64,000 nt of DNA, taken from NCBI GenBank assembly GCA_963700145.1, contig OY969474.1, forward strand, positions 3,680,001 to 3,744,000, written 5' to 3'. The DNA is from an uncultured Acidobacteriota bacterium. Lineage in GTDB: Bacteria; Acidobacteriota; Thermoanaerobaculia; Multivoradales; UBA5704. This document shows positions 6,585 to 42,719 of the stretch, one piece after another. Position numbers and translations under genes: made by a program. Below the pieces are notes generated by a model that saw only the letters and a list, made by a program, of their open reading frames with translations, was not told the origin of the DNA and searched no databases. The first letter of the stretch is position 1. The number at the start of each line of letters is the position of its first letter.

Positions 6585-8741
6585 ATGCCGGGCGAAGTTC
6601 CTCAGCACAAACGGTTAGAGCCCGACGCGGCAGCCGGGGTCCTCGACCTGCCGCGCTCCTTCCTCGCCCGCACCACGCCCGATCCCGCCGCCGCCGGGCG
6701 CCTCCGCCGGCTGGCGGAGCCCGGCCCGGCGCTCCTCTGGACGACCGACAACGACCTGCGCTTCACCTCCGGCCCGGCGCCCCGCGACGAGGGGCCGCTG
6801 CCGGGAGGCAGCGTCGTCGACTTCTACGGCGCCGCGGACTGGGAGGCGCCCCCGGTCAAGGCCCACCGCCGCGCCCTGGCCGGCGAGAGCGCCGAGTTCG
6901 AGCACCGCTGGCAGGGGCGGCTCCTCCGCTGCCACGTCGAGCCGCTGCGCGACGCCTTCGGCCGGGTGAGCGGGACGATCGGGGTCGCCTTCGACATGAC
7001 CGAGCGGCGCGCCGCCGAGGAGGAGCTCTACCGCGAGAACGAGCTCGCCGGGGAGACACTGGCCGCGATCGGCGACGGCGTCATCCGCGCCGACCTCGAG
7101 GGGGTCGTCGACTATCTCAACCCGGTGGCCGAGCGCCTGACCGGCTGGTCGTCGATCGAAGCGGTGGGCAGGCCGGTCGGCGAAGTCTTCAGCCTCTTCG
7201 ACGAGGTGACCCGCCGGCCGCTCGCCGGCCCGGTCGAGCGCTGCCTGGCCGAGAACCGGCTGATCGAGTCGCCGCCGCACGCCGTCCTCGTACGCGCCGA
7301 CGGCATGGAGTACTCGGTGCGCGACTCGGCGGCCCCGATCCGCGACCGCGAAGGGCGCCTGGTCGGCGCGGTCCTGGTCTTCAAGGACGTCACCCAGCTG
7401 CGCGGCATGGAGCGCGAGATGGTCTATCTCGCGAGCCACGACGCCCTCACCGGGCTGATCAACCGGCGGGAGTTCGAGGCGCGCTTGAAGCGCGCCCTGC
7501 GCAGCGCCCTCGGCGAGCGCCGCCTCCACGCCATGCTCTACCTGGACCTCGACGAGTTCAAGGTGGTCAACGACACCTGCGGGCATCTCGCCGGCGACGA
7601 GCTGCTCAAGCAGGTCACGGCGCTCTTGCGCTCGCGAGTGCGGCGGATCGACTCGCTGGCGCGCCTCGGCGGCGACGAGTTCGGCGTGCTGCTCGAGGAC
7701 TGCCCGCTCGTCCAGGCGCGCCAGATCGCCGAGGAGCTGCGCGGCACGGTGCGCGAGTTCCGCTTCCGCTGGAAGGACCAGGTGTTCGAGATCGGCGTCT
7801 CGATCGGCCTGGTGCCGATCGACGCCACGAGCGGCGACCTCGCGAGCCTCCTCTCCGCCGCCGACGCGGCCTGCTACGTCGCCAAAGAGGGGGGGCGCAA
7901 CCGGGTCCACGAGTACGAGATGGACGACACGCTGGTGGCCGAGCGCCACGGTGAGATGCAGTGGATCCACCGCATCCACCGCGCCTTCGAGGACCGCCTC
8001 TTCCGTCTCTACTACCAGCCGATCCAGCCCCTAGGCGCGAAAGCTTTCGCGCCGGGCTCCGATCAAGCTGCGGTTGGCGAGCGGGAGACGCTGTGCGAGG
8101 TGCTCATCCGCATGCTCGACGATCGCGGGCGGGTGCTCTCGCCGGCGGCCTTCATCTCGGCCGCCGAGCGCTACCACCTGATCGGGGCCGTGGACCGCTG
8201 GGTGGTGCGGACGGCGCTGCGGGCGCTGGCCGAGGCGCAGCGGCATGACGGCTCGAAGCGCCTGCTCTTCGCCATCAACCTCTCCGGCCAGTCGCTCTCG
8301 GACGAGACCTTCCTCGACTACGTCGTCGGCCAGCTCGTCGAGAGCGGCGTCGACTCGCGCCGCATCTGCTTCGAGATCACCGAGACCGCCGCCGTCAGCA
8401 AGCTCGACGACGCCACCCGCTTCATCAAGGTGCTCAAGGAGATGGGCTGCCGCTTCGTGCTCGACGACTTCGGCAGCGGCCTGTCGTCGTTCGCCTACCT
8501 GCGCGACCTGCCGGTGGACTTCCTGAAGATCGACGGCGAGTTCGTCAAGAACATGGTCGACGACCAGGTCAAGCGGGCGCTGGTCGAGTCGATCAACCAG
8601 ATCGGCCACGTCATCGGCGTGCAGACGATCGCCGAGTGGGTGGAGAACCGCGCCACGCTCGACGTCCTCAAGGAGATCGGCGTCGACTACGTCCAGGGCT
8701 ACTGGATCGCCAAACCCCAGCCCTTAGTGCACGATCTGTAG
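6585..8741 (+). CDS. PAS GGDEF-EAL protein, paralog of the upstream gene
   Basis: HDALTGLINRR, RLGGDEF, EVL, DDFGSGLSSFAYL. Confidence 0.92.
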   Translation: MPGEVPQHKRLEPDAAAGVLDLPRSFLARTTPDPAAAGRLRRLAEPGPALLWTTDNDLRFTSGPAPRDEGPLPGGSVVDFYGAADWEAPPVKAHRRALAGESAEFEHRWQGRLLRCHVEPLRDAFGRVSGTIGVAFDMTERRAAEEELYRENELAGETLAAIGDGVIRADLEGVVDYLNPVAERLTGWSSIEAVGRPVGEVFSLFDEVTRRPLAGPVERCLAENRLIESPPHAVLVRADGMEYSVRDSAAPIRDREGRLVGAVLVFKDVTQLRGMEREMVYLASHDALTGLINRREFEARLKRALRSALGERRLHAMLYLDLDEFKVVNDTCGHLAGDELLKQVTALLRSRVRRIDSLARLGGDEFGVLLEDCPLVQARQIAEELRGTVREFRFRWKDQVFEIGVSIGLVPIDATSGDLASLLSAADAACYVAKEGGRNRVHEYEMDDTLVAERHGEMQWIHRIHRAFEDRLFRLYYQPIQPLGAKAFAPGSDQAAVGERETLCEVLIRMLDDRGRVLSPAAFISAAERYHLIGAVDRWVVRTALRALAEAQRHDGSKRLLFAINLSGQSLSDETFLDYVVGQLVESGVDSRRICFEITETAAVSKLDDATRFIKVLKEMGCRFVLDDFGSGLSSFAYLRDLPVDFLKIDGEFVKNMVDDQVKRALVESINQIGHVIGVQTIAEWVENRATLDVLKEIGVDYVQGYWIAKPQPLVHDL
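8030..8067 (+). repeat. 38-bp palindromic repeat (family B), copy 1, inside the EAL domain
   Basis: CCTAGGCGCGAAAGCTTTCGCGCCGGGCTCCGATCAAG; matches 43969-44006 with 2 mismatches. Confidence 0.8.
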
Positions 8742-37022: not shown

Positions 37023-37727
37023 ATGAGCGACGAGAGCGTCGGCGACCGCCTGCGGCGGATCGAGCGGCGCATCGCCGAGGCCTGCGCGCGCGCCGGTCGG
37101 CGCCCGGAGGAAGTGCGCCTCCTCGGCGCCAGCAAGGGCCAGCCGGTCGCGGCGCTGCGTGAGGCCTGGGAGGCGGGGCTGCGCCTCTTCGGCGAGAACC
37201 GGGTGCAGGAGGCGGCGGCGAAGGCGCCGGAGCTGCCGGCGGAGATCGAATGGCACCTGATCGGCCCCCTCCAGACCAACAAGGTGCGGCGCGCGCTCGA
37301 CCTCTTCGCCGCCGTCCACTCGGTGGACCGGCCGAAGATCGCGGAGGCGCTGGCGCGCGAGGCGGCGGCGCGAGGCGTCGATCTGCCGGTCTTCCTGGAA
37401 GTGAACCTCGCCGGCGAGGCGAGCAAGCACGGCTTCCTGGCGGATGGTCTCGCCGCCGCGGCGGCGCCGCTCACCGCGCTCCCGCGCCTGCGCGTTGTGG
37501 GTCTCATGGCCGTGCCGCCGCTCGGCGGCGATCCCGAGGCGTCCCGCCCCTGGTTCCGCCGGCTGCGCGCCCTCCGCGACGAGCTCGCCGCCCGCCCCGA
37601 GTGGCGCGGCTGGCCGGGGTGGCTGTCGATGGGGATGAGCGACGACTTCGAGGTCGCGGTCGAGGAGGGGGCGACGCACGTGCGCGTCGGCACCGCGCTC
37701 TTCGGGCCGCGGCGGATATACTCCTAG
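37023..37727 (+). CDS. yggS: PLP homeostasis protein (YggS family)
   Basis: FGENRVQE, WHLIGPLQTNK, LSMGMSDDF, VRVGTALFG. Confidence 0.96.
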   Translation: MSDESVGDRLRRIERRIAEACARAGRRPEEVRLLGASKGQPVAALREAWEAGLRLFGENRVQEAAAKAPELPAEIEWHLIGPLQTNKVRRALDLFAAVHSVDRPKIAEALAREAAARGVDLPVFLEVNLAGEASKHGFLADGLAAAAAPLTALPRLRVVGLMAVPPLGGDPEASRPWFRRLRALRDELAARPEWRGWPGWLSMGMSDDFEVAVEEGATHVRVGTALFGPRRIYS

Positions 37728-37750
37728 CAAGCAAGCACTGGAGCGATTCG

Positions 37751-38956
37751 ATGGAGCTGCCTTCCGCCGGCCCGCCTGGGCCGACGCTGTCATGGCATCT
37801 GGACCCGGGGAATCGCCCCAAGCGGATCCTGGCGCTCGACGGCGGCGGCGTGCGCGGCACCCTGTCTCTCCAGTACCTCGAGCGCATCGAGGGCATCCTG
37901 CGCCAGCGGCTGGGCCGTCCAGGCCTCGTGCTGTCCGATTACTTCGACCTGATCGGCGGCACCTCGACCGGCGCGATCATCGCGGCCGGCCTGGCGTTGG
38001 GCCTCGACGTCGCAAGGCTCAAGAAGGAGTACGACGAGCTGGCGGCCCGCATCTTCAAGAAGCCGTTCTTCCGCCTCGGCGCCATCGTGCCCAAGTTCGG
38101 TCACGAGACCCTCAAGGTGGCCCTGAAGGGGGTATTCGGCGAAGGGACGAAGCTGGGCTCCCCGGACCTCAAGACCGGCCTGATGATCATGACCAAGCGG
38201 ATGGACACCGGGAAGCCGTGGCCGCTCACGAACCACCCGAAGGATCCGTATTTCGCTCCCCAGCTCGGGAAGCGCCGGATCGGCAACGCCAACATGCTCC
38301 TCTGGCAGCTCGTCCGCGCGAGCACCGCGGCGCCGCACTACTTCCGCCCGGAGGACCTCGTCGTCGGCTCCGCCCTCGACCCGGCGAGCGGGCAGCCGAC
38401 CGTCGACCACGGCCAGTTCGTGGACGGCGGCGTCTCGACCGCCAACAACCCGTCCTTGCAGCTCCTGAAAGTCGCTCTTCTCCGAGGCTTCGCCTTCAAC
38501 TGGAGCGCGGGCGAGGACGAGCTGCTGCTCGTCTCCGTCGGCACCGGGCTGCCGCGGCGGGGTCGGGGTCGGGCGCGGGGGTTCGCCGCCACGGCGGGCA
38601 GGTTCGCGTTCTCGTCGCTGCTTTCGCTCATGGCCGACTGCAACGACGAGGTCGAGACGCTGATGCAGTGGCTGTCCGACGGTCCCACGGCGCGACGCAT
38701 CGACGGCCAGATCGGCGACCTCGGGAACGAAGCGCTGGGCGGACGCCGCCTCCTCACCTACAGGCGCTACAACGTCAGGCTCGAGAGCGCCTGGCTGAAG
38801 AGCGAGCTGGGCCTCGACCGCTCCCAGGAGGAGCTGGACCTGCTGTCCCGGATGGACCGCCCGGCCGGGATGTCCGCGCTGGCGGCCATGGGAGCGCAGG
38901 CCGCCGCCCGACAGGTCGAGCCGGGACACTTGCCGTCGGCGTTCGATCCCCGGTAG
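37751..38956 (+). CDS. Patatin-like phospholipase
   Basis: LALDGGGVRG, GTSTG nucleophile, ASTAAP, FVDGG. Confidence 0.92.
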   Translation: MELPSAGPPGPTLSWHLDPGNRPKRILALDGGGVRGTLSLQYLERIEGILRQRLGRPGLVLSDYFDLIGGTSTGAIIAAGLALGLDVARLKKEYDELAARIFKKPFFRLGAIVPKFGHETLKVALKGVFGEGTKLGSPDLKTGLMIMTKRMDTGKPWPLTNHPKDPYFAPQLGKRRIGNANMLLWQLVRASTAAPHYFRPEDLVVGSALDPASGQPTVDHGQFVDGGVSTANNPSLQLLKVALLRGFAFNWSAGEDELLLVSVGTGLPRRGRGRARGFAATAGRFAFSSLLSLMADCNDEVETLMQWLSDGPTARRIDGQIGDLGNEALGGRRLLTYRRYNVRLESAWLKSELGLDRSQEELDLLSRMDRPAGMSALAAMGAQAAARQVEPGHLPSAFDPR

Positions 38957-38987
38957 GCGCCGGCGAACTGCGAGCGAGGACCAGGTC

Positions 38988-40313
38988 ATGACCCCTTCGA
39001 TCTTCATCAGCCTCACGCACCGGGACACCAGCATCGCGGAAGCGCTCGATCGGGCCCTCAAAGCGCTGCTCGGCGAGGACGCGGCGGTTTACTTCTCGAC
39101 CAGCAAGGAGCTGCGCGGGGGCATCGGGCACGGCGAGAACTGGTTCCAGTGGATCGTCGACAAGGTCAAGGAGTGCGACTTCTCCCTGGTCCTCATCACC
39201 CCCGCCTCGGTCCAGAAACCCTGGATCCCGTGGGAGGCGGGCGCGGTGTACGGCGCGGCCGTCGCCTCTGGGCAAGAGGGCCTGCGCAAGGTGCGGCCGC
39301 TCCTCTACCGCGTGCGGACCGACGACCTGCCGTCGCCGATCCGCGACTCTCAGATCCAGCTCCGGCGCGGCGACGACCCCGGCGACGTCATGACCTTCTT
39401 CAAAGGGATCCTCGCCCAGTACAAGGACAGCCTGGGAGCAGACAAATTCATCACGGCGTCGATGCGGCTAGAGCAGACCGTCGCCAAACACATTCAGGAG
39501 GTCGAGACGAGCCTGAAGCTCGCCCCGATGCTGGCGGACACCAACGTCGTCGAGGAGTGGCGCCATCGCCTCGACGACCTGCTGCAACAGAACAGAGCTT
39601 CAGAGGTGGAGCACCTCCACCAGTGGCTCGACATCGCCTTCGGCCGCGACCAGGCGGATCGGCCGCAGCCGCTGGACCTCCGCCTCCACTCCAAGCTGGC
39701 CAGCCTCTACCTCAAGGCCAAGAAGTACCCGGAGGCGGTCCAGCAACTCGAGCTGGCGCGGCGGCTCGCCCCCCGCGACATCTACGTCCTCCGCACCCTC
39801 GGCAAGGCGTATCTGGAGAACAAGCAGCGCGACGAGGCAAGGGCCGTACTCGAAGCCATCGCGGAGCTCGACCCGAAGGCTTTCGTCCACAACGTCGAGT
39901 GCGCGGCCCTGCAGGGCCGCTGGTACCGCGAAGGCAAGAACCCGCAGAAGGCGGTGGAGATCTTCGCGGCGGCGCTCGACGAGAACCCGGATTCCCACTA
40001 CCTGGCCAACCTCCTGGGCGAGGCCCGCCTCGAGGCCCGCGACCAACCGGGAGCGAAGGCCGCCTTCGAGCGCGTGGTTCAGATCATCGAGGAGCTCGGC
40101 GAGGAGAACGTCTGGACCCACGCTTCGCTCGCCAACGCCGCCTTCGTTTGCGGCGACGACGCGGCGGCGGTCGCTCATCTCCGGGCGATCTGCGACGGAA
40201 AGCCTCACGCCGATACTCTCTCGACGATCACCGAGGGCCTCACCCGTCTCGCCGCGAACGTTGAAGGCGGCCGGGAGCGGCTGCCGGCGCTGCTGCAGAC
40301 CTTCAGACGATGA
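38988..40313 (+). CDS. TIR domain + TPR repeat protein
   Basis: N-terminal IFISLTH...LVLITPASVQKPWIPWEAGA (TIR with catalytic-type Glu); C-terminal TPR helices. Confidence 0.8.
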   Translation: MTPSIFISLTHRDTSIAEALDRALKALLGEDAAVYFSTSKELRGGIGHGENWFQWIVDKVKECDFSLVLITPASVQKPWIPWEAGAVYGAAVASGQEGLRKVRPLLYRVRTDDLPSPIRDSQIQLRRGDDPGDVMTFFKGILAQYKDSLGADKFITASMRLEQTVAKHIQEVETSLKLAPMLADTNVVEEWRHRLDDLLQQNRASEVEHLHQWLDIAFGRDQADRPQPLDLRLHSKLASLYLKAKKYPEAVQQLELARRLAPRDIYVLRTLGKAYLENKQRDEARAVLEAIAELDPKAFVHNVECAALQGRWYREGKNPQKAVEIFAAALDENPDSHYLANLLGEARLEARDQPGAKAAFERVVQIIEELGEENVWTHASLANAAFVCGDDAAAVAHLRAICDGKPHADTLSTITEGLTRLAANVEGGRERLPALLQTFRR

Positions 40314-41188
40314 CCGATTCCGCGGTCCGCTCGGCCTGGAGGCAGCAAGCCGTCTGGTCGGCCCTGGCCAATCGCCTCAAGCGCGGGCTGGCGCGCTCGC
40401 GCCGCTGGACGTTGGGCCTGATGATCGCCGGCGCGCTCCTCGAGACGGCGGCCGCGCAGGCGAGCTCGATCGGCGGTGCGCCCGCCGGCGCCGCGACGAT
40501 CCTGAGCGCGGCCGGCGCCGCGGCGCTTGCCGCCGCCGCCTTCATTCGCGTGCGCAAGCTCGGCGTGGACCGCGTTCGCGACTGGGTCCGGGCGCGGTCG
40601 GCGTCGGAAGGGCTGAAGGAGGCCGTCTTCCTGCACGTGATGGGGGCGGCCGCCGAGCCGCTCGGACAGGTCGTCGACCGGATCCTCGGCAAGGTCAAGG
40701 ACCTCGAGCCCCAGGCGGCCCTGATCGGCGTGCCCGAGAGAGAGCCTCCCGGACCGATGGACGTCGAGCGGTACATCGAGGTCCGCGTGAGCGGCCAGAT
40801 CGACGGCTTCTATCGGCCGCGCGCGGCGGCGCTGGCTCGCCGCCTCGCCTGGACGCGCCGCGCCGAGTTCGCGGTCCTCCTCACCGGCGCCGCGATCGGG
40901 GCCCTCTCCCCGGTCGTCGGTGCGGCGCGGACTGCGGCCTGGGTCGCGGTGCTGACGACGGTGGCCGGCGCGCTGGTCGCGGAAGCCGAGGCCGCGCGCT
41001 ACACCCACCTCATCATCAGCTACCGCACGACCGCCCGCCGGCTGGAAGCGCTGCGCGACGCCTGGCGCGAGCGGGCGCAAGCGGGCCCCGTGCCACCGGA
41101 CGAGGTGGCTCGCCTCGTCCGCAGCTGCGAGGAGGCCATCTCGATCGAGAACCAGGGGTGGATGGCCGAGTGGATCCGCGAGGGCTGA
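40310..41188 (+). CDS. Tandem SLATT (DUF4231/SLATT) four-TM protein
   Basis: Two TM pairs; WVRARSASEGLK, YIEVRVSGQIDGFY, YRTTARRLE, CEEAISIENQGW. Confidence 0.8.
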   Translation: MTDSAVRSAWRQQAVWSALANRLKRGLARSRRWTLGLMIAGALLETAAAQASSIGGAPAGAATILSAAGAAALAAAAFIRVRKLGVDRVRDWVRARSASEGLKEAVFLHVMGAAAEPLGQVVDRILGKVKDLEPQAALIGVPEREPPGPMDVERYIEVRVSGQIDGFYRPRAAALARRLAWTRRAEFAVLLTGAAIGALSPVVGAARTAAWVAVLTTVAGALVAEAEAARYTHLIISYRTTARRLEALRDAWRERAQAGPVPPDEVARLVRSCEEAISIENQGWMAEWIREG

Positions 41189-41266
41189 CGCGCCAACGCT
41201 CCGCCAAGGCTCGCGGCCGACGGATGCTAAGATGAGCATTCTTCTTTCGGTCGCAGTGCAGGAGAG

Positions 41267-41773
41267 GTGCCGATGTCGCTGACGCCGCTCGACGTCCAGA
41301 AGGCCCGCTTTCCGCAGAAGGTGCGAGGCTACGACCCGCGCGAGGTCGAGGACTTCCTCGCCCTAGTGGCCGAGGAGCTTGCCACCCGGCTCTCGCAGGT
41401 GGACCGGCTGGAGCGGGAGAACCGCTACTTCCGCCAGCGCCTCGACGACGCCGACGAGCGCGAGCACCAGCTGCAGCAGACCCTGCTGCGGGCGCAGAAG
41501 GTCTCCGAGGAGATCACCGCCGCCGCCCGCCGCGAGGCCGAGCTGCTGGTCAAGGAGGCCGAGCTGACCGCCGACAAGGTGGTGCAGCAGGCGGTCGAGC
41601 AGACCACCCGCTTCGAGGGCAAGATCCAGGAGCTGCGCACCATGCGGCGCGAGCTGCAGCTCAAGTTCAAGAACAGCCTCGACCTCTTCCAGAGCATCCT
41701 CGACGACGAGATGGAGGACGAGCGTTCGACCGCCATCGTCCGCACGATGCCGCGGCGCAAGAAGGAGGCGTGA
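41267..41773 (+). CDS. divIVA: DivIVA domain protein
   Basis: LTPLDVQKARF...RGYDPREVEDFL plus coiled coil. Confidence 0.92.
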   Translation: MPMSLTPLDVQKARFPQKVRGYDPREVEDFLALVAEELATRLSQVDRLERENRYFRQRLDDADEREHQLQQTLLRAQKVSEEITAAARREAELLVKEAELTADKVVQQAVEQTTRFEGKIQELRTMRRELQLKFKNSLDLFQSILDDEMEDERSTAIVRTMPRRKKEA

Positions 41774-42057
41774 GCCCGCGCCCGCTGCCGGCCGGCGCCC
41801 GCCGGCTGTTCCCCCACTACGACGAAGCAGACCTGACGCCGGAGCGCGCGCCGGCGCTGCTCGTCGCCCGGCTGCTGGAAGACGGCGACACCGCCGATCT
41901 CGCCTGGTTGACGGCGGTCTTTCCGGAAGAGCGGCTTGCCGCCTGGGTCGCCGAGCGGGGTGGACGGCAGCTCTCGGCGCGCAGCCGGGCGTTCTGGGAA
42001 GTCGTGCTGGGTAAGGAAGCGTCCGCGCCGGTAGCATGCGACTTGTGGCCGCTCTGA
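41770..42057 (+). CDS. Small putative antitoxin (DUF6922-like)
   Basis: LFPHYD...ARLLEDGD...LSARSRAFW; overlaps the nucleotidyltransferase gene. Confidence 0.6.
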   Translation: MSPRPLPAGARRLFPHYDEADLTPERAPALLVARLLEDGDTADLAWLTAVFPEERLAAWVAERGGRQLSARSRAFWEVVLGKEASAPVACDLWPL

Positions 42058-42719
42058 GCCCCTGCTATCTCGAATCGCTCGATCCAGCCGCCCGCGAGCT
42101 CCTGGCGCGCCTTGGCGGCCGGCCATGGACCGAGGACTTCTACCTCGCCGGCTCGGCGGCGCTGGCTCTCTACACCGGCCATCGCGCCGTCCGCGACCTC
42201 GACCTGATGAGCAACGCCAACCGCCTCACCCCACCCGAGCGCCGCGACCTGCTCGCCGACCTGCTCGAGATGGCGCCGGCGACCGAGGTCGAGACGGCGC
42301 GCGACGGCTACCTCTTCGCGCGCCTTGCCGAAACCGGGCTGCGATTCTTCTACTACCCGTACCCGCTCGTCGACCCATTCGCGGACCTGGACGGCGTGGC
42401 CGTCGTCTCCGCCGTAGACCTCGGCCTGATGAAGCTCGCCGCGATCATCAGCCGCGGCACCCGCCGCGACTTCGTCGACCTCTACCTCCTCTGCCGCACG
42501 CTCCCCTTGGCCGACCTCCTCGCCCGCGCCGAAGACAAGTTCGGCCACGTCCGCGACTTCCCCCTCCAGGCCCTCAAAGGCCTCGCCGACCTCTCCCAAG
42601 TCCAAGGCGAGCCCATGCCCACCCTCGTCGCCCCGCTCGCCTGGGAAGAGGTCGAAGCCTGGGCCCGGACCGAAGCCCGCACCCTCGGCCGCGCCCGCGC
42701 CGGGCTGCCCGTCGCATGA
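42036..42719 (+). CDS. AbiEii/AbiGii-family nucleotidyltransferase (putative toxin)
   Basis: FYLAGSAALAL, HRAVRDLD, KLAAIISRGTRRDFVDL. Confidence 0.85.
   Translation: MRLVAALSPCYLESLDPAARELLARLGGRPWTEDFYLAGSAALALYTGHRAVRDLDLMSNANRLTPPERRDLLADLLEMAPATEVETARDGYLFARLAETGLRFFYYPYPLVDPFADLDGVAVVSAVDLGLMKLAAIISRGTRRDFVDLYLLCRTLPLADLLARAEDKFGHVRDFPLQALKGLADLSQVQGEPMPTLVAPLAWEEVEAWARTEARTLGRARAGLPVA

Follow-up and report, generated by a model that had tools for sequence, protein, structure and literature searches.

The stretch analysed here is a 64,000-nucleotide (nt) window of contig OY969474.1 from an uncultured Acidobacteriota bacterium, and it contains a three-gene island that encodes a patatin-like phospholipase, a TIR-TPR protein and a tandem SLATT membrane protein. 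Judging from its domains and from comparison with related loci and described systems, the island is probably a horizontally acquired, predicted Thoeris-type abortive-infection module. It is best read as a Thoeris-type variant closest to type VII, and not as a wholly new kind of system. This reading is based chiefly on the occurrence of a constant TIR-TPR protein with interchangeable effectors, two of which (SLATT and caspase) come from validated signalling types of Thoeris.

Read directly from the sequence, the three genes lie on the same strand between 37751 and 41188, in the order patatin, TIR-TPR, tandem SLATT. The patatin gene (37751..38956, + strand; 401 amino acids; predicted effector 1) matches Pfam Patatin over residues 27-235 (E 1.7e-23). 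The TIR-TPR gene (38988..40313, + strand; 441 amino acids; predicted sensor and signal generator) matches Pfam TIR_2 over residues 5-125 (E 8.3e-10) along with TPR families, and the SLATT gene (40310..41188, + strand; 292 amino acids; predicted effector 2) matches DUF4231 over residues 16-114 and SLATT_1 over residues 155-284. The guanine-plus-cytosine (GC) content of the window is ~74%, which crowds six-frame lists of open reading frames (ORFs) with spurious frames; the three named ORFs are genuine genes all the same. An initial annotation of the window, made from the sequence alone, had described three tightly coupled, co-oriented genes, and this is what we find: 31 nt separate patatin from TIR-TPR, and the TIR-TPR stop codon and SLATT start codon share an ATGA overlap. 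Its account of the domains holds as well. The GGGVRG, GTSTG and DGG motifs of the patatin are readable in the translation, the TIR domain has W79-x3-E83 and is fused to TPRs, and the third protein, described there as having two SLATT-like transmembrane pairs, contains DUF4231 and SLATT_1 and is modelled with two long helical hairpins. As it had also stated, none of the three proteins matched a CD-NTase, SIR2/SLOG or STAND NTPase (nucleoside triphosphatase) in the Pfam, PADLOC and NCBIfam scans.

A profile scan using one genome per species identified 39 TIR-TPR loci, distributed across Acidobacteriota, Nitrospirota, Pseudomonadota, Actinomycetota, Planctomycetota, Myxococcota, Thermodesulfobacteriota and Tectimicrobiota, with one archaeal locus in a Methanothrix. 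Based on family hidden Markov models (HMMs) applied to six-frame ORFs, a tandem SLATT adjoins TIR-TPR in 24 of the 39 loci (22 by tblastn) and a patatin is present at nine (also nine by tblastn). TIR-TPR with SLATT is the commoner core, and the patatin is optional. Both effectors are found together at seven loci (L024, which belongs to the genome G002, L025, L029, L030, L039, L051 and L053), so the trio co-occurs elsewhere, a recurrence that the initial annotation had proposed to look for. Two loci (L028 and L048) have the patatin as their only partner. Elsewhere the partner position is held by Peptidase_S8 (L027 and L031), by 8xMP membrane proteins (L042, L058 and a further case in which the gene lies upstream) or by a caspase (L056).

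We placed 38 TIR-TPR proteins in a maximum-likelihood tree, leaving out L061 and L062, whose matches are partial or weak. One clade of 15 (support 100/100) holds the window together with all nine patatin loci; it also contains two SLATT-only loci, two S8 loci and one locus where no partner was found. The clade spans six phyla, and their mixing within it indicates that the module moves horizontally. Judged from this tree, the patatin was added in one lineage, some members of which have lost it or carry a replacement.

Individual loci show what the alternative partners look like. In the Streptomyces locus L056 (4504-7350) the TIR-TPR homologue is accompanied by a Peptidase_C14 caspase and a 160-amino-acid ORF, and SLATT is absent; at L042 and L058 genes for 8xMP 'octameric membrane proteins' stand in place of SLATT. 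The caspase and 8xMP neighbours are candidate further effector types for the TIR-TPR lineage. Two Vicinamibacterales loci have 592-amino-acid subtilases downstream of TIR-TPR (L027 7468-9246 and L031 7509-9287). The first ~200 residues of these subtilases have no family match and could be a signal-receiving domain. At L032 the SLATT beside TIR-TPR (7239-8225) is split between frames (HMM matches 7239-7505 and 7509-8225), which may reflect a frameshift or an assembly error.

The position of the island in the genome also points to acquisition. It lies between yggS (37023..37727, + strand; Pfam Ala_racemase_N, E 4.9e-18), which encodes a YggS-type pyridoxal phosphate protein, and divIVA (41267..41773, + strand; Pfam DivIVA, E 3.1e-30), the flanks recognized in the initial annotation. 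Alignment of the two window junctions to the unoccupied site in the related genome G004 delimits an inserted segment of ~3.5 kb at 37717..41195 (strand not applicable; ends good to a few bases), and junction alignment and synteny indicate that it contains the three genes only. Relative to the window, the YggS of G004 is 97% identical over residues 1-231 and its DivIVA is 98-99% identical; its yggS and divIVA are ~95 nt apart (tblastn synteny), and the two genes are comparably close in G001, G003 and G006. Relatives with an empty site, which the initial annotation had suggested seeking, thus make up four of the five examined (G001, G003, G004 and G006). In the fifth, G002, the site is filled, so it is variable within the genus.

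Based on the junction alignment with G004, the insertion starts within the final codons of yggS and gives the window YggS an altered C-terminal tail. At 37700-37727 the window protein ends in GPRRIYS, whereas relatives run on with another tail (L023 5060-5100). On the other side, the insertion stops just 5' of a hairpin and T-tract that relatives also have after yggS. This terminator-like hairpin with its T-rich tail lies at 41222..41251 (+ strand) and was located by a consensus scan, which is weak taken alone (3 found versus 1.6 expected); its GATGCTAAGATGAGCAT stretch is also found at the empty site of G004. Since the hairpin is common to the relatives' empty site, the island separates yggS from what looks like the terminator it would otherwise use. 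The window junctions show no sign of an integrase, transposase or target-site duplication.

The SLATT gene was detected in one of 301 sampled genomes of the phylum (E<=1e-10), and full-length TIR-TPR in two of 41 relatives, counting the window's own genome. A set of viral contigs (viral_contigs) yielded no relative of TIR-TPR or SLATT, plasmid sequences gave one distant TIR-TPR match (26% identity) and a PHROGs scan returned unknown-function families only. Gene GC content is 0.655-0.71 in the island versus 0.74-0.80 outside it. At third codon positions, GC (GC3) is 0.89-0.925 in the three genes versus 0.945-0.974 in yggS, divIVA and the upstream genes, and adenine (A3) is 0.032-0.057 versus 0.009-0.038. 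The base-composition shift is genuine yet modest. The A-richer codons of the initial annotation are borne out in direction, with A3 higher and GC3 lower, but the difference is weak.

The filled relative, G002, is a congener whose trio adjoins divIVA and is 84/77/76% identical to that of the window. In this genome the patatin is preceded, on the opposite strand, by an 829-amino-acid ORF that has an erythromycin-esterase domain (L024 1101-3590), and yggS is on a separate contig, followed by a small HTH gene (L022 8815-9237). The arrangement represents either a larger island at the same site or else a rearranged one.

Based on the effector swapping and on the precedent of type VII Thoeris, the best reading of the module is the one already sketched in the initial annotation, in which a TIR-made signal acts on membrane effectors. 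The TIR-TPR protein would serve as both infection sensor and signal generator, taking the role of ThsB in a form that is fused, through a conserved helical linker, to TPRs. In an infected cell its TIR domain would turn nicotinamide adenine dinucleotide (NAD+) into a small molecule derived from ADP-ribose (ADPR), possibly canonical cyclic ADP-ribose (cADPR) by analogy with type VII, and this molecule would activate two membrane-attacking effectors encoded either side of TIR-TPR. The tandem SLATT would open a pore or otherwise breach the membrane and the CapV-like patatin would hydrolyse lipids, such that the infected cell would halt growth or die ahead of phage release. We infer from domain content and analogy that the function is anti-phage, that the TIR signals and does not act by NAD+ depletion alone, and that one signal serves both effectors.

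The closest precedent is type VII Thoeris, a validated type made up of TIR and SLATT operons. It comes from a preprint that covers 10,332 ThsB TIR domains (Yirmiya et al., bioRxiv 10.64898/2025.12.03.692087, December 2025). As described in the main text of this preprint, type VII produces canonical cADPR in a phage-dependent manner, and the toxicity of its effector ThsH is cADPR-specific. The same text describes rare Thoeris operons with two effectors for one signal (ThsH and ThsI), lists phospholipases among 29 predicted Thoeris effector types, and identifies SLATT and caspase as effectors of the validated signalling types VII and IV, respectively. TIR-SLATT neighbourhoods had been described earlier, with SLATT as a predicted nucleotide-responsive pore, in passages of Iyer et al. 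2022 (PMC9503650) and Kaur et al. 2020 (PMC7159879).

The island resembles type VII, as the preprint describes it, in several respects. Its TIR gene is directly beside a gene for a SLATT membrane protein that overlaps the TIR-TPR stop codon, the operon is mobile and patchy, and a second effector is encoded in the operon. The predicted logic is also shared, with a TIR-made, NAD-derived signal that would open or assemble a SLATT membrane lesion. In line with Thoeris more generally, the TIR has E83 within an invariant W79xxxE83, and the adjoining effector gene varies between related TIRs. Unlike in type VII, the TIR of the island is fused to a linker and TPR, a form of ThsB that the main text of the preprint does not mention, and the second effector is a patatin and not ThsI. 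The SLATT of the island is a tandem of DUF4231 and SLATT_1.

The initial annotation had called the system undescribed and had stated that it does not match Thoeris. The second statement is not supported: operons of TIR and SLATT now make up type VII Thoeris, and phospholipases are listed as predicted effectors in the main text of the preprint. The first is only partly right, since a constant TIR protein with swapped effectors is the Thoeris pattern and the TIR and SLATT core already has a name; what stands is the TPR fusion and the pairing of patatin with SLATT, neither of which was found in the literature searched. Our search found no text describing a TIR-TPR fusion together with SLATT and patatin, and the supplementary tables of the Thoeris preprint might include the cluster.

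Other known systems share parts of the island. The best matches of the patatin in PADLOC, NCBIfam and the PDB are to CapV-type effectors of the cyclic-oligonucleotide-based anti-phage signalling system (CBASS), and its GxSxG motif (with S72), DGG motif and oxyanion GGGxRG motif are present. In contrast to CBASS, no CD-NTase is encoded in the three-gene insert and there is no nucleotidyltransferase match; the patatin scores under the CapV equivalog cut-off, and its C-terminal third is unrelated. In TIR-STAND or Avs NLR-like proteins (TIR, NTPase, then TPR or WD40) the TIR is likewise N-terminal and the repeats C-terminal, and such STAND proteins precede the same tandem SLATT family in metagenome loci, but the island protein lacks an NTPase between TIR and TPR and has just 441 amino acids. 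The conclusion of the initial annotation that the trio matches neither CBASS nor Avs is therefore sound, given the missing CD-NTase, the low CapV score and the missing NTPase. We also ran PADLOC v2.0.0, a check that it had proposed. With a 2023 library that predates Thoeris types V-XI, no complete system was called for the three proteins, and there were single-component matches only: a CBASS phospholipase, a weak ThsB, a weak TIR-TM and a weak CBASS 2TM.

TIR and TPR occur together in type VIII Thoeris and in BcTir-BcTpr, where a TPR-S domain is proposed to perceive the TIR product (10.64898/2025.12.03.692087, 10.1101/2023.05.26.542521). The effector of type VIII is described there as bearing a TPR domain for which Burroughs & Aravind (2020) had predicted a part in TIR signalling (10.64898/2025.12.03.692087), and Patatin-Tpr assemblies are reported among TPR-centred operons (10.1101/2023.05.26.542521). 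In these texts the TPR is on a nucleosidase-like effector; here it is on the TIR protein, and its TPR-S match is under the cut-off (16.9 versus 27.6 bits).

In the TIR-TPR protein, a TIR domain (residues ~1-130) is joined through a conserved helical linker (131-225) to ~180 amino acids of TPR array (~226-405), with several Pfam TPR families matching over ~230-400. Its AlphaFold2 model (mean predicted local distance difference test score, pLDDT, 88.3) shows TIR, helical linker and TPR solenoid, with no NTPase domain. A fold search of the PDB with this model returned generic TPR proteins only, which mask the TIR, and a PDB sequence search with the TIR region gave nothing significant (best TIR match E 0.13). 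All 31 aligned family members share W79, W82 and E83, and many charged residues of the TPR are likewise invariant; invariant TPR positions include R263, D264, R269, E304, R311, S336 and Y338. From its W-x3-E motif, E83 is the putative catalytic glutamate. By mean pairwise identity within the family, the TPR (0.51) is almost as conserved as the TIR (0.585), and the linker has 0.39. The family is compact, with members of ~440 amino acids and 184 matches at E<=1e-5; among the 120 matches listed, identity to the window protein is 42-88%, mostly near full length. A profile search of 1.84 billion representatives returned 193 clusters at 50% identity (E<=1e-30, fragments counted). Some relatives keep the TIR and linker only, with C-termini that are GAF, methyltransferase or without a family match. 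In P0244 and P0260, for example, TIR and linker (~residues 1-180) are followed by a GAF or an S-adenosylmethionine (SAM)-methyltransferase C-terminus that replaces the TPR.

SLATT and TPR-S were reportedly defined by Burroughs et al. 2015 (NAR) and Burroughs & Aravind 2020 (J Bacteriol). The SLATT protein of the island matches SLATT_1 in Pfam (1.8e-20) and NCBIfam (4e-23) and DUF4231 (1.3e-07), and has hydrophobic stretches at ~33-51, 57-86, 185-206 and 206-229. AlphaFold2 models it (mean pLDDT 91.6) entirely as helices, which form two long hairpins. The PDB contained no fold match for this model at E<=0.001 and no solved relative by sequence. Among 19 SLATT homologues the motifs W..RARS.SE..K and CE.AIS.EN..W are invariant.

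The patatin has a C-terminal extension of ~100-170 amino acids without a family match. PADLOC models of CBASS phospholipase effectors are its best matches in that library (2.4e-42 and 4.3e-32), and NCBIfam CBASS_lipase (NF041079, the CapV equivalog) scores 107.5 bits, under the 200-bit cut-off. CapV is also its nearest solved relative (E 2.6e-18), over residues 25-202 only. At E<=1e-40 the patatin is detected in eight of the 301 phylum genomes. In one genome, G302, a plain TIR_2 protein of 192 amino acids is encoded 46 nt upstream of a patatin that is 43% identical to that of the window (L147 1489-3229), which by its domains would be a minimal pair of TIR and phospholipase.

Several observations weigh against a Thoeris-type signalling module in which both effectors answer to the TIR-TPR protein, and the first concern SLATT. 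A scan of metagenomes for SLATT kept 80 loci, 36 of which have at least 1400 nt upstream, and TIR-TPR is directly upstream in just ten of these 36. We chose ten long upstream ORFs from the remaining 26 loci for a family scan. Five comprise a DUF4062-AAA-TPR STAND protein, an nSTAND1-TPR, an nSTAND1-WD40, a WD40 protein and a TIR_2-RDD protein; the other five are a patatin, a GH3 glycosidase, a response regulator, a weak RHS match and an ORF without a match, so some upstream genes, such as those for the glycosidase and the response regulator, are unrelated. At two of these loci the tandem SLATT follows a TIR_2-RDD membrane fusion (L143 2882-3940) and a DUF4062-AAA_16-TPR STAND protein (L099 852-4004). 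Such pairings with other TIR-type proteins, among them the plain TIR and patatin of G302, speak for the Thoeris-type reading. SLATT and patatin are thus shared modules that recur with TIR-type proteins, though with others too. At the TIR-TPR loci themselves, eight of 39 have no recognisable partner, and insertion sequence (IS) elements lie beside some.

Many bacterial TIR domains are NADase effectors. For the unverified types of Thoeris, the main text of the preprint raises the prospect that the TIR might itself be an NAD+-depleting effector (10.64898/2025.12.03.692087). Applied to the island, TIR-TPR would be a self-contained sensor-effector, STAND/Avs-like minus the NTPase, in which a phage cue bound by the TPR sets off NAD+ depletion; SLATT and patatin would be accessory or parallel killers, maybe triggered by the by-products ADPR or cADPR or by direct contact. 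The eight loci without a recognised partner fit such an arrangement, as does the occurrence of the SLATT family behind STAND proteins, which usually have an effector as their N-terminal domain. The ATGA overlap, however, couples the partner tightly, and neighbours of folds as unrelated as SLATT, patatin, S8, 8xMP and caspase better suit a diffusible signal; moreover, two of these folds, SLATT and caspase, are the effectors of the validated signalling types VII and IV as given in the preprint. We therefore regard a TIR that acts as executioner as unlikely, if still worth carrying as the leading alternative to signalling.

The TPR array bears on how the predicted module would sense infection. 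The gathering threshold of TPR-S (Pfam PF20308) is not reached by the window protein, as given above. TPR-S matches 14 of the 31 family members at E<=0.01 (best 5.3e-07), whereas generic TPR models match all 31 and score higher. Taken together, the cross-phylum conservation of the TPR and the weak TPR-S matches somewhat weaken the idea of the initial annotation that the TPR senses a phage protein, and speak against a fast-evolving sensor of this kind. A TPR that recognises a conserved phage protein, or that serves oligomerisation, may be compatible with this conservation. Rather doubtful is the bolder proposal of a distinct Thoeris lineage in which the TPR would not sense phage proteins but be a TPR-S-like small-molecule receptor placed on the generator, with a gated or feed-forward signal, perhaps unlike known cADPR isomers, that fires a SLATT pore and a patatin lipase.

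The patatin supplies the remaining counter-evidence. Its subfamily far exceeds the TIR-TPR family (7619 matches at E<=1e-20 among 8000 candidates scored, against 184 at E<=1e-5), and in four of five genomes searched no TIR_2 gene is near the related patatin. Related patatins being mostly without a nearby TIR and their subfamily far larger, the patatin could be an independent neighbour: TIR-TPR and SLATT would then form the system, and the patatin would be a single-gene defence or a lipase that shares the island. At L030 the patatin is on the opposite strand, after SLATT, and the metagenome locus L138 has patatin and SLATT without TIR-TPR, as would be expected of two modules standing abreast. 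Yet the nine patatin loci and the window fall in a single TIR-TPR clade, mostly in the same order and with short gaps, and the patatin is the sole partner of TIR-TPR at L028 and L048. G302 pairs a plain TIR with a related patatin, and the closest solved and PADLOC relatives of the patatin are nucleotide-activated CBASS effectors. On balance, an independent patatin seems quite improbable. More improbable by far is a housekeeping role tied to yggS and divIVA, for example in cell division or membrane-lipid homeostasis, which might be suggested by an island that interrupts the conserved cluster of yggS and divIVA and seems to share the transcription unit of yggS, but which we rejected on the relatives' empty sites: the island was not found in four of five close relatives, where yggS and divIVA stay adjacent, SLATT is in one of 301 phylum genomes, module contexts in other phyla are unrelated and the three domains are all typical for conflict systems.

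If the Thoeris-type reading is right, the Thoeris repertoire would gain a lineage of ThsB fused to TPRs, together with SLATT and patatin as a double membrane effector. The island would provide a natural test of whether a single TIR signal drives two effectors of unrelated fold, and its compact TIR-TPR protein of 441 amino acids would be suited to studying how bacterial TIRs switch on. As the family is present in little-studied phyla (Acidobacteriota, Nitrospirota and Planctomycetota) and in a methanogen, TIR signalling would extend beyond the relatives of model organisms that have been tested. Nothing is overturned, the logic having been foreseen by comparative genomics and demonstrated for TIR with SLATT.

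Two further genes lie on the other side of divIVA. Directly after it is an ORF of 95 amino acids without a family match (41770-42057), which is overlapped by a gene for a 227-amino-acid AbiEii-type nucleotidyltransferase toxin (42036-42719; Pfam AbiEii, 5.8e-11). The two look like a type IV toxin-antitoxin or Abi pair, and a small hotspot of defence genes may lie around yggS and divIVA. Both genes are kept in G004 and G002, and their GC3 values (0.844 and 0.886) are the minimum of the neighbourhood.

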